Origin: Octopus vulgaris
Lineage: Eukaryota
Assembly: GCA_951406725.2 (NCBI GenBank)
Contig: OX597821.1
Location: forward strand, 18,476,001-18,540,000
Reading direction: 5' to 3'
Length of the DNA: 64,000 nucleotides
Below are positions 1,348 through 52,908 of this stretch, one piece after another. Positions within the stretch are counted from its first letter, which is position 1; each line of letters opens with the position of its first letter. A program made the translations under genes and the position numbers. The notes under the pieces were generated by a model. That model ran no database searches. It was not told the DNA's origin and saw nothing but the letters and a program-made list of their open reading frames with translations.

Positions 1348-1851
1348 AAAATGTGTTGCTGAAAATGCACTTAAATTTCAAAAACTCGTAAATGTTTAAA
1401 ATACATTTATTTACATATGTACCAAACTAGTTTCAACAATATTTTTTGTTTATCAATGGTAAAAGTGTAAAATTAGAAAAAACATTGTTACAAGTTTCAA
1501 TGTTGACAAATCAAAATTAAATTAAAATGTTTCAATGTTGATAAATTATCATGTTCAAAACAGAAGGTGTAAGTTTGAAATTAAAACTGTATATTAATTT
1601 GTTAGAATGTACAAGGTTCATTAATTTCAGTGGTGGTCAACAAGTCATACTGAAAAAAAACTGAGAATTGAAATAGTAAAAAAGGGGGAAATTATGGTTT
1701 CTCAGATCTTTAAACAGTCGGTTCCGCATGTAATGATACCATTGATAAACAAAAAATATTGTTGAAACTAGTTTGGTACATATGTAAATAAATGTATTTT
1801 AAACATTTACAAGTTTTTGAAATTTAAGTGTATTTTCAGTAACACATTTTC
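1348..1851. mobile_element. Inverted-repeat element (~115-bp arms) in TA context, Penelope-like relic
   Basis: 1348-1461 is the reverse complement of 1737-1851; each arm holds a degenerate hammerhead-like motif. Confidence 0.6.
1737..1778 (+). ncRNA. Degenerate minimal hammerhead-like motif (mirror copy 1420-1461 on minus)
   Basis: tacca-TTGATA-aacaa..ttgtt-GAAA-ctag-TT-tggta: stems I, II and palindromic III present, core deviates from CUGANGA. Confidence 0.4.
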
Positions 1852-1970
1852 CTATATATTTTTTTCCTGTGTGGAAACACCACTCCCTCTTTTGCTCTCT
1901 CTCTCTCTCTCTCTATATATATATATATATATATTTCTTTATACACACATACACATACATATATATATAT

Positions 1971-2381
1971 AGGTGCAAGCATGGCTGTGTGGTAAGAAGC
2001 TTGTTTCCCAATCACATGGCTCAAGCTGCGAGGCTCTTTGGACAAGGGTCTTCAACTTTTATAGCCTCGGGCCAACCAGAGATTTGAGTGGATCTGGCAG
2101 AAGGAAACTGAAAGAAGCTCGTTGTGTATATGTGTGTGTGTATCTTTGTGTATGTGTGTCTTTGTGTCAGTATTTGTTCCCCACCACCGCTTGACAACTG
2201 GTGCTGGTGTGTTTACATCCCTGTAACTTGGTGGTTCAGCAAAGAGACCAATAGAATAAATAATAGGCTTAAAGAAAAAGAAAAAAAAACAAGTAGTGGG
2301 GTCGATTCAGTTGACTAAAAATTCATCAAGGCAGGGCCATGTTATAATGACTGAAACAAGTAAAAGTCAAAAGATAAAAGA
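1971..2381 (+). mobile_element. SINE family A, diverged copy
   Basis: Head ATGGCTGTGTGGTAAGAAGC, body GGAAACTGAAAGAAGC, tail ATGACTGAAACAAGTAAAAG. Confidence 0.75.
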
Positions 2382-2471
2382 CATGTATGTACACACAAAC
2401 ACATATATATATATACTTACATATACATACATACATATATATATGTATACACACATACATATATATACATA

Positions 2472-3319
2472 CAGGATGCCTTGGGTAAATTGTTGCCATT
2501 TTATAATTTTAATTTTGTGCATGCACATTGTTTTGGATTTTGTTAACTACACAGTATAGTAGGGTCAGTCAGGCACAGTCTGTGAGAAAAACAGCACCAT
2601 GACACAATTCACTCTGCCAGAAATTCGGAAATGACATGCCGAAAGCTCTAATATGAACATTTCAGTGTATTTGGGTGTCAATCTAAGGACATGTACGGAG
2701 AGTGATAAAAATCAAACATCAAAGTCAACATCATGGTGTTTAGAGTGATCACTAGTGATGGTGACGTTATGCTTCCATTCATCTACCCACATAGCCTCAG
2801 ATTCAACACAGAGGCCTACATCAAAGTGCCTAGAGAAAGTAGTGCTGCCCTGGGTCAAGATGGTGGCTCCTGGAAGACCCTATGTCTGGCAACAGGACTC
2901 TGCACCATGCCATGCAAGCAAGAGAACACAGTCATGACTGTCAGACAATTTCTGCGACCACATCACCCCTAATATCTGGCCACCTAACTCCCCAGACTGC
3001 AACCCCCTTGATTATTATGTGTGAAGCACAGTTGAACGAGAGACCAACAAAACTCGCAACACTAAAAGATGAACTGAAGGCAAGGATTATGGTAGCATTC
3101 ACCAACTTAAACAAGGAGACTGTCAAAAAGAATTGCAGGAGATTCCAAAGTCATCTGGAGGCTGTGGTTGAAGCCAATGGCGATTTTATTGAATAGGTTT
3201 ACTCTTTGGTATTTCAAGATATTTCTAAGTAATTTTGGTAAATATATCTGTTAAAATGAGATGACAGTGTTATTTTCATTTTTGCACAACTTAGATGACA
3301 GTTTATTCACTGCATCCTG
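2472..3319 (+). mobile_element. Internally deleted Tc1/mariner element, probably DD37D (maT) type
   Basis: TA-CAGGATGC ... GCATCCTG-TA ends; fragments YVWQQDSAPCH and WPPNSPDCNPLDYYV (third catalytic residue D). Confidence 0.8.
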
Positions 3320-3469
3320 TATATATATATGTGTGTGTATATATATATATATATATATATATATATATATATATGGAGAGAGAGTATATGTGTGTGTGTG
3401 TGCACGTGTATGTGTCTGTGTGTTTGTATGTGTGTGTATATCTATGTATATTTATCTATATCTATATAT

Positions 3470-50641: not shown

Positions 50642-51035
50642 TACTCTTACTCTTTTACTTGTTTCAGCCATTTGACTACGGCCATGCTGGAGCACCACCT
50701 TTTAGTCGAGCAAATCGACCCCGGGACTTATTCTTTGTAAGCCCAGTACTTATTCTATCGGTCTCTTTTTGCCGAACCGCTAAGTGACGGGGACGTAAAC
50801 ACAGCAGCATCGGTTGTCAAGCAATGCTAGGGGGACAAACACAGACACACAAACACACACACGCATACATATATATATATACATATATGCGGCAGGCTTC
50901 TTTCAGTTTCCGTCTACCAAATCCACTCACAAGGCATTGGTCGGCCCGGGGCTATAGCAGAAGACACTTGCCCAAGATGCCACGCAGTGGGACTGAACCC
51001 GGAACCATGTGGCTGGTTAGCAAGCTACTTACACA
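50642..51035 (-). mobile_element. SINE family A
   Basis: Near-identical to the other young copies. Confidence 0.85.
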
Positions 51036-51569
51036 ACATTAGCGTGATGATGTTGAAACAAGACATAAATATCGTGTACACTGAATTTCGTCTGAGCTTA
51101 AATTTTCTTAGCTTTTAAATCAACTGGATTTTATAGACATACATATTACATGTGTGTGTATGTGCATGTGTGCGCGCTCGTGTATATGTGCGTACGCGTT
51201 TGTGTATGTGTGTGTACACACTGTTTTCTTCAGTGCTTTTAGTACCTTCTTTTTCACCTTTCCCACGCTTTCCCACCTAGAATACCTTCACATACACACA
51301 TCTTTACTGCTGTTTCAAAAATTCGGTGACAGGTTGAAGCAATAATATATAAACAGGTATGCCATATATAAGTGTTTGTCCATCTTTATCTCTCTCATAT
51401 ATATATATATATATATATAAGTAAAAGCAATTAAGATTCAAGTCAGTTCTAATGAATTCACTTGAATGCGGTACTTAACTTAGATGCACCAGAAAACTAT
51501 ATGGTATTAACCATACAATAATGTGGGGTGATTATAAACGAGAAAAAAGCAACAAGAATGGATTAGTTT

Positions 51570-51660
51570 TTTTAGTACAATTGTTTCATACAAAGACAGG
51601 CTTTATTAAAAGCTGCAAATATTGCAGCAAATACAAGTGTCCCGTACTCATCAGCTAAAA
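51570..51660 (-). ncRNA. Type I hammerhead ribozyme, canonical core
   Basis: Mirror of 51986-52076. Confidence 0.85.
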
Positions 51661-51985
51661 CACATATGAGTTCTCCAAACATCTTAGTGGGTGAGGCTAC
51701 ACTCATGAAGTATCGGAGATAATTTTATAAAAAGCAAATTCAGGTTGTAAGCGGACTTCCAAAGTTCTTTAATGATGATGCACAGTCTTATCACAGGTTT
51801 TAAAAAAGGTTATTAGCTTCTCTGTGAAGCTAATAAGCTTTTTTAAAACCTGTGATAAGACTGTGCATCATCATTAAAGAACTTTTGAAGTCCGCTTACA
51901 ACCTGAATTTGCTTTTTATAAAATTATCTCCGATACTTCATGAGTGTAGCCTCACCCACTAAGATGTTTGGAGAACTCATATGTG

Positions 51986-52076
51986 TTTTAGCTGATGAGT
52001 ACGGGACACTTGTATTTGCTGCAATATTTGCAGCTTTTAATAAAGCCTGTCTTTGTATGAAACAATTGTACTAAAA
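51986..52076 (+). ncRNA. Type I hammerhead ribozyme, canonical core
   Basis: uuuuag-CUGAUGA-guacgggaca..ugucuuuguau-GAAA-caauug-UA-cuaaaa; palindromic stem III; GUA site after 52070. Confidence 0.85.
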
Positions 52077-52908
52077 AAACTAATCCATTCTTGTTGCTTT
52101 TCTCGTATATATATATATATATATATATATATATATATATATATATATATATATATATATATGTGTGTGTGTGTGTATAAAATATACATTATATACATGT
52201 TTATATATATATTTCATAATTATATACATAATTATAATAAAGGCTTGGCTTGCGACTCACCACGCACTGAAAAATAGACGTCAAAAGACACTATTGCCAC
52301 CATAAATTCTCCGAGATAACACAGCACCATTAATAGGCTAGCAAAAGAAAGAAAATGAATTAGAACTTTCGGTTAACCGCGTACAAGATCCTGTTTCCAG
52401 CTTAAAGTAAAAAAAATATATTACCTATTGCCCTTATCAGCGCCGGTATTCCATAGCATAAATTCACTAGTGTCCATGAATATTTGTAAAATTTACCTAT
52501 GAGGCTTTTATTTCCGCGCTGACCACCTGGTAAGAATCATTAATGATTTATACCCTTTATCATCATCATCATCATCATCATCATCATCATCATCATCATC
52601 ATCATCATCGTCATCATCTTCATCGTCGTCGTCGTTGTTGTTGTTGTTGTTTTTGTTTTTGTTGTTGTTTTGTTGTTGTTGTTGTTATTATTATTATATT
52701 TATTCTTGTTGTTATTATTATTATTATTATTATTATTATTATTATTATTGTTGTTGTTGTTGTTGTTATTATTATTATTATTGCTGTTGTTGTTGTTGTT
52801 GTTATTATTATTATTATTATTATTATTAATATTATTATTATTATTATTATTATTATTATTATTATTATTATTATTATTATTATTATTATTATTATTATTA
52901 TTATTATT

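Follow-up and report, generated by a model that had tools for sequence, protein, structure and literature searches.

Probable Penelope-like 3′ ends with predicted hammerheads in an octopus genome

A 64,000-nt stretch of the Octopus vulgaris genome (GenBank assembly GCA_951406725.2, contig OX597821.1, positions 18,476,001 to 18,540,000 of the forward strand), analysed in full and called the window here, contains nine mutually unrelated, high-copy repeat families (A to I) that carry hammerhead ribozyme motifs in a (TA)n setting. Together, the nine families account for 7716 of the 64,000 bases of the window (~12%). We consider it probable, at roughly 85%, that the majority derive from the 3′ ends, truncated and inverted, of several families of Penelope-like elements (PLEs) with a predicted hammerhead, and that PLE enzymes likely also copy family B, a 361-nt tandem repeat that encodes no protein. 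The arms are read as PLE 3′ ends because longer copies of families A, C, E, F, G and H continue upstream into a frame encoding a GIY-YIG endonuclease. An earlier note, made from the letters of the window alone, had proposed several unrelated hammerhead elements embedded in (TA)n, and this proposal was confirmed by the excess of motifs over shuffled sequence described below and by the lack of similarity among the arms of the eight families compared (best cross-family blastn E-value, 0.10). Its suggestion of a PLE link is supported by the six families with endonuclease frames; high copy number, the (TA)n setting, inverted arms and covariation are supported as well, and each of the eight families is multi-copy.

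The first look at the genome returned 1449 candidates for A, 1387 for B, 1220 for C, 2053 for D, 1726 for E, 1092 for F, 800 for G and 195 for H, numbers that are not copy numbers, and the 40 best candidates were scored per search. The best copies of A, B and C are 97-100% identical, marking these families as young; D, G and H are old (70-90% identity). The window itself holds no PLE coding sequence that tblastn could detect with seven queries at an E-value of 0.01.

Hammerhead motifs

The hammerhead descriptor combined the core, stems I to III and the GUH triplet, and allowed one unpaired base before or after stem II as well as core variants at U3 or C4. It matched eight complete motifs in the window, with cores at 1456, 3661, 8545, 8906, 10183 and 51654 on the minus strand and at 1742 and 51992 on the plus strand, compared with a mean of 0.005 and a maximum of 1 in 200 block-wise dinucleotide shuffles. 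The descriptor was written after the motifs had been seen, which favours a positive outcome in this control; earlier versions that required a 10.1-11.1 pair or a short stem II missed most motifs. When stem I was left out of the search, 8 of the 10 cores in the window still formed a stem I of at least 4 bp. Of the remaining two, 12118 is mismatched at just one position, the first pair of stem I, and 44743 is a chance match. Among 131 distinct motifs in 350 loci fetched from the genome (L001-L350), 53 formed a stem I of at least 4 bp, in contrast to 2.5% after the flanks had been swapped between motifs. The stem I-forming motifs fall into 31 stem I sequence groups, some of them variants of one family, and stem III is perfectly palindromic in 20. 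The differing stems that still pair and the self-complementary stem III described in the earlier note were both recovered, the former also as covariation among B subfamilies and the latter as a palindrome in most families. The layout is type I throughout and, with its conserved core, three stems and covariation, identifies a type I hammerhead for which cleavage is predicted. The DNA flanking the fetched loci carries many further hammerhead families, including C4 core variants.

Other searches were less informative. The Rfam scan that the earlier note had recommended gave no hammerhead family among the 150 listed of 206 matches in the window; microRNA models matching microsatellites and inverted arms dominated the listing. 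An inverted-repeat search of the window was swamped by (TA)n. Cofolding favoured the dimer by 2.8-12.4 kcal/mol, a result of little weight since such minimum-energy folding takes no account of the catalytic core. An alignment of six protein pieces was uninformative.

Three motifs had been described as decayed. The one at 17626 is indeed so, carrying A9C and a stem I mismatch while other members of its family (G) are intact. By contrast, the core at 1737, UUGAUAA, is common to the whole of family F and represents a family-wide U3-A8 variant rather than decay, U3-A8 being a described hammerhead core covariant (Cervera and de la Pena, 2014, PMC4209133). At 5878 only the 3′ half of a motif is present, and the apparent 5′ core is a piece of inverted tail. 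The motif at 32589, previously listed as intact, does belong to a type I family but is without the stem II that the family keeps, the majority form having an 8-bp stem II and a perfect palindrome.

Arms that continue into endonuclease frames

Family A is represented at 3463..5783 by a long minus-strand arm, with the 3′ untranslated region (UTR) and tail of a putative Hydra-like PLE, and a short inverted arm that stops inside stem III. Its hammerhead (3588..3665, minus strand, predicted cut after 3592) has an 8-nt palindromic stem III, and the motif is almost unchanged across 27 aligned copies. Positions 3480-5394 of the window match locus L135 at 96%, stopping ~180 nt short of the stop codon of a reverse transcriptase (RT)/GIY-YIG frame that ends at 6788 of that locus. 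The family frame is present in 18 of 28 fetched A loci. Family C (10041..12178) has the same arrangement of a long minus-strand arm, here the microsatellite-rich 3′ UTR and tail of another candidate Hydra-like PLE, and a short inverted arm; its hammerheads lie at 10189-10139 (minus strand) and, with one stem I mismatch, at 12112-12162 (plus strand). Window positions 10632-11914 match the 3-kb 3′ UTR of L139 at 95%, and the family frame occurs in 10 of 25 fetched C loci. In L140, the family C tail leads straight into the frame start in a pseudo-LTR (long terminal repeat) arrangement. Family E (51420..52106) is a near-perfect head-to-head insertion of what appears to be a Hydra-like 3′ end on both strands, with hammerheads at 51660-51570 (minus strand) and 51986-52076 (plus strand). 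In 2 of 17 E loci (L004/L210 and L010), a GIY-YIG frame lies upstream, its end 0.9 kb away.

The assignment of these three families as Hydra-like draws on diagnostic protein motifs: RWA and DKT in A, RWR and DKT in C, and CxCX5C in A (regular expression) and in C and E (read by eye). In E the recovered part is C-terminal and the RWK/DKT region is out of reach. The endonuclease carries CxxC and CxH in A (regular expression) and in C and E (by eye). The Hydra-clade order was seen in A (L217 and L222) and C (L216), every copy being interrupted. Hydra-clade elements are generally shorter than 3 kb, with canonical hammerheads and (TA)n insertion (Craig et al., 2021, PMC8557442); a canonical hammerhead near the 3′ end and (TA)n insertion are both present in A, C and E. 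For one element protein, the best named relatives come from octopods and are 39-49% identical. All nine C junction reads, two of which are from the same locus, share one frameshift, which falls on a stretch of C residues between the RT part and the endonuclease part (L216, L243, L244, L250, L253, L139, L125 and L092), and the young C burst may have moved in trans or may use ribosomal frameshifting. Asparagine-rich low-complexity stretches separate RT and endonuclease in E (L210:4727-6124) and A (L217:1788-3464), and similar stretches have been reported in rotifer Penelope elements (PMC3846280).

Family F (1339..1894) is a head-to-head insertion with arms on both strands, apparently the 3′ end of a Neptune/Nematis-like PLE. 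Its hammerheads (cores at 1456, minus strand, and 1742, plus strand) have the U3-A8 core and a 6-nt palindromic stem III. Loci L153 and L155 share 1147-1194 nt with it at 88% and continue in sense into an RT/GIY-YIG frame, a linkage found in 2 of 18 F loci; RT was thus seen in longer copies of A, C and F. A CX2-5CxxC linker can be read in the L155 frame and is also found by regular expression in the 49-54% similar frame of L138, the nearest query frame to F, which has Pfam RVT_1 and GIY-YIG matches. The sequence features are consistent with a Neptune/Nematis-like PLE and do not distinguish Neptune from Nematis. Family G (17392..17829) is an old head-to-head insertion with a decayed hammerhead at 17709-17628 on the minus strand. 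Its copies are 71-80% alike, and the motif is intact in L162 and L166. Family H (5807..6025) pairs a minus-strand arm (5807-5909), in which the hammerhead is reduced to its 3′ half, head-to-head with a fragment of tail; longer copies hold the intact motif. A sense GIY-YIG frame lies ~0.4 kb upstream in many of the 30 H loci from an upstream walk (e.g., L293, L295, L296, L298, L304 and L314). In L182, the endonuclease frame next to H is that of a different family, which has its own hammerhead.

Pairing of short and long 3′ ends

The arms end at two fixed 3′ points per family, measured from the predicted cut: +34-60 and +120-129 in A, +19-27 and +96-104 in C, +38-45 and ~+156 in E, +78-86 and +120-127 in F, and +179 and ~+220 in B. 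One short and one long 3′ end were paired in 67 of 69 scorable two-armed insertions (A, 14/14; C, 21/22; E, 6/6; F, 3/3; B, 23/24). The E long end was scored as 168-175 including the TA run, one deleted copy at +57 was counted as long, and a tandemly duplicated E locus was counted once. The short A arm of the window ends at -3 and was counted as short. For B, a first set of 26 loci (four pairs overlapping) yielded 19 distinct scorable insertions, all mixed, after omission of L049, L060 and L068 as disrupted or single-armed; a second set of 7 new loci gave 4 mixed pairs among 5 scorable, with L278 and L288 omitted. Loci with a single arm in range (15 of 29 for A) were not counted. The A query selects neither end, and its 14 mixed pairs of 14 have a probability of 0.0001 against even odds. 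A one-sided tail of 30-40 bp has been published for PLEs (PMC8557442; PMC3846280), and we found no statement of a near-strict short/long pairing in the available portions of the PLE literature searched.

Family B, a probable 361-nt retrozyme

Family B (8333..9155) comprises two 361-nt units on the minus strand in tandem (period 361) and an inverted partial arm. Its hammerheads (8551-8506 and 8912-8867, minus strand) have a U3-G8 wobble core, with predicted cuts after 8512 and 8873. B insertions contain the 361-nt unit alone, in partial tandems, as two head-to-head arms within (TA)n, and 22 of 44 arms are longer than one unit. The end point falls at unit position 361 (353-361) for one arm and, for the other, at 37-45 of the unit that follows; the inner junctions vary. 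The circularised unit has a GC content of 45% and a longest ATG frame of 89 aa, and the unit folds better than all 100 shuffles (z = -5.1). Two B subfamilies, at 87% (L210) and 76% (L367, with at least 3 units), keep the tandem form and change C-G to U-A in stem I, carry a G-C pair at 10.1-11.1 and have U3-A8 in contrast to the U3-G8 of the window. Pair counting on four rows was not significant, as 166 of 500 shuffles reached the observed value. Position 3 is C in contigs (type guessed) of three public runs from three studies. Copies of B adjoin or lie within E, I and C ends (L210:7213-8485, L367:1989-3108 and L071), as would be expected if elements had repeatedly inserted into the (TA)n that earlier ones left behind.

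B shares with animal non-LTR retrozymes a tandem unit of 150-450 bp, a type I hammerhead and the absence of open reading frames (ORFs) and LTRs. Such retrozymes have been argued to be non-autonomous derivatives of PLEs (Li, Clavereau and Pollet, 2026, bioRxiv 10.64898/2026.07.22.740005). B is the only family for which non-autonomy is established, and it was likely copied by PLE enzymes.

Alternative readings

The earlier note had seen in these repeats a population of non-autonomous ribozyme retroelements that ORF-based annotation would miss. That description holds for B, and possibly for D and for C, whose copies share a frameshift. The six families whose longer copies run into an endonuclease frame, C among them, would be picked up by repeat annotation based on homology. 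As an account of all the elements it is quite unlikely. The lack of PLE frames in the window agrees with it, as do the restriction of B to its 361-nt unit, D and I without a parent found, and the frameshift shared by C copies. It is contradicted by the six families that continue into endonuclease frames and by 5′ truncation points that differ between copies, and is largely refuted for A, E, F and H. That B is a satellite which arose from the terminal repeat of a PLE and was amplified locally through DNA recombination rather than by retrotransposition of multimers (the scenario discussed in bioRxiv 10.64898/2026.07.22.740005) also seems improbable to us, if marginally less so. Tandem arrays do exist (L367), and a U3-G8 wobble core may cleave poorly. 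However, B copies are scattered over many contigs, and the combination of (TA)n, head-to-head arms, fixed ends (361 and 37-45) and variable inner junctions is a footprint that unequal crossing-over does not make. We regard as very improbable indeed that the elements are miniature DNA transposons with terminal inverted repeats inserting at TA, with a hammerhead look due to chance. Inverted arms and TA flanks would be expected of them, but the two arms are unequal, their lengths vary and their end points are of two kinds; furthermore, the motifs exceed chance and the arms run into RT/GIY-YIG frames, which refutes this reading.

Several observations weigh against the interpretation of the elements as PLE 3′ ends with an enzymatically copied B. 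The clade names rest on motifs. Among the candidate Hydra-like families, Pfam gave no match for the A and C frames, and the GIY-YIG match of E (E = 0.0005) lies below the curated cut-off. No uninterrupted full-length frame was seen, the A copies being broken at differing places and the C reads sharing their frameshift, and the element lengths of ~4.6 kb in A and >5 kb in C, owing to long 3′ UTRs, exceed the <3 kb of Hydra elements. The GIY-YIG frame of G is joined to its arm at a single locus (L201). No parent of B was present among 370 loci, a sample rather than a genome-wide search; a walk from D yielded its tail alone, with no parent frame, and no parent frame emerged for I. Scoring the best 40 candidates biases the sample towards young copies. 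As for the end pairing, the queries for C and E predetermined one end, and two insertions are exceptions (L125, long/long; L285, short/short). Finally, a model of one RNA with a leading and a trailing strand requires the short-end arm always to reach further 5′ and is not supported, because the arm did so in only 14 of 22 B insertions.

A proposed model of insertion

In the mechanism that we propose for these PLE 3′ ends, the GIY-YIG domain of the element would cut both strands of a (TA)n tract, and each DNA end would prime reverse transcription at one of two fixed internal RNA sites, 20-220 nt downstream of the ribozyme cut. Each cut end would use a different start site. The parts of the RNA copied by the two new strands would overlap; synthesis would end at random 5′ points, and the strands would then be joined, leaving two head-to-head arms, one with a tail and one without. 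The template would not be a cut linear monomer, because nearly all start sites lie downstream of the predicted cut; we lean towards an uncut tandem transcript and give a re-ligated circle somewhat less credence. Arm lengths without a fixed leader fit strand displacement as well as two templates. A stem III that is palindromic would make it possible for two motifs to cleave as a dimer (on dimeric cleavage, Lunse et al., via review PMC6765202). A further proposal, which we hold only tentatively and think rather doubtful, is an asymmetric dimeric complex in which two RNAs are held via their palindromic stems III and primed from the two cut DNA ends, one obligatorily at the near site and the other at the far site. 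On this view the palindrome would mainly serve integration, by bringing RNAs together as dimers, with cutting as a lesser role, and B, at 361 nt, would be a minimal substrate retaining nothing but these signals. This role of the palindrome in pairing templates is speculative, and Naiad elements, which make inverted insertions without canonical hammerheads (PMC8557442), speak against it.

Comparison with known elements

Hydra-clade PLEs (PMC8557442) resemble the window families at the protein level, in a C-terminal GIY-YIG domain and in RWK-like, DKT and CxCX5C motifs. They also have a 3′ type I hammerhead whose stem II is flanked by extra bases and whose stem III is self-complementary, and they likewise target (TA)n, occur as an inverted truncated copy and show a one-sided tail. 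The supplement of that study lists an octopus family, Hydra-1_Obim, and a table of Hydra hammerheads; the stems of the window hammerheads differ by eye from those of Hydra-1_Obim, indicating different families. Unlike the Hydra clade as described there, the window families have 3′ UTRs of 0.4-3.4 kb that are partly microsatellite-rich, tails of ~35-120 rather than 30-40 nt, and a stem III that is mostly an even-length perfect palindrome. The minimal hammerheads of PLEs (PMC4209133) are also alike in the type I motif in terminal repeats, the unpaired base at the start of stem II, the U3-A8 covariant, the palindromic stem III, the opposite-strand pairs 100-700 bp apart and the many divergent families per genome. 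Stem III is longer in the window (6-16 nt), however, and stem II often long-looped, and no cephalopods appear among the minimal hammerheads in the available parts of that survey. Animal non-LTR retrozymes (Cervera and de la Pena, 2020, PMC7229834; bioRxiv 10.64898/2026.07.22.740005) match B as ORF-less tandem units with a type I hammerhead, in the 45% GC content and in their proposed ride on PLEs. B differs from them, as they are described there, in showing the full PLE footprint of head-to-head arms, two fixed ends and (TA)n; its cleavage and circular RNA are predictions.

A biochemical parallel is the Poseidon element of Anolis carolinensis, in which two adjacent internal RT start sites define the tail in vitro, both DNA strands are cut and extended, the protein is predicted to form a dimer and ribozyme cleavage is not needed (Frangieh et al., 2024, PMC11167929). 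The AT-rich target and, on the mechanism proposed above, the two start sites bounding the tail and the cutting and extension of both strands are shared with the window families. In contrast, the available text of that study reports no difference between the strands in start site, whereas here the two ends almost always use different sites. Our literature search for a hammerhead survey in octopus gave Craig et al. (2021) as the sole relevant work, and the words hammerhead, ribozyme and retrozyme are absent from the main text of a 2026 octopus repeat annotation (PMC13282606).

Other features of the window

Two families complete the catalogue. Family D is a single old plus-strand arm (32520..32726) with a hammerhead at 32589-32669, decayed in stem II, and a predicted cut after 32665. 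Frames beside D in L100 and L119/L213 were considered as its parent and set aside, as their collinearity with D was not established. Family I, absent from the earlier note, is a head-to-head insertion (25915..26222) whose arms both stop downstream of the hammerhead. It returned 55 matches and 1866 candidates, and the motif was present in 4 of 6 longer loci scanned. Family I also has short and long ends, and the stem III palindrome of its longer copies starts with AU rather than AC. E insertions recur within larger tandem duplications at L128-L129 and L130-L131, with periods of ~3.1 kb and ~8.5 kb.

Microsatellites are abundant in the window, with TA-based tracts of 1.5-3 kb at 12182-13689, 15633-17268 and 35336-38414. 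Positions 1-430 contain the end of an integrase-like frame (seen in L145), which we take to be part of an LTR retrotransposon. Candidate pieces of non-LTR retrotransposon RT frames lie at 14559-15630, 21114-22140, 25087-25512 and 53275-54470, several of them broken off at microsatellites. Decayed transposase-like pieces at 2640-3200, 19000-19540, 26290-27100 and 29600-30600 presumably derive from Tc1/mariner-like elements, which they resemble. A region of raised CpG with a short inverted motif at each end (47040-47940) is possibly a host promoter region.

Implications for PLE integration

The catalogue itself is ordinary, adding new families of already published element types. The near-strict pairing of short and long ends, on the other hand, constrains how PLE integration is completed, a step that the 2024 in vitro study left open and whose assay could be used to test the pairing. 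In B, the insertion footprint links a retrozyme to PLE enzymes, a connection that the available literature argues from co-occurrence and sequence similarity. The young families A, B and C, with copies that are 99-100% identical, provide ready substrates.

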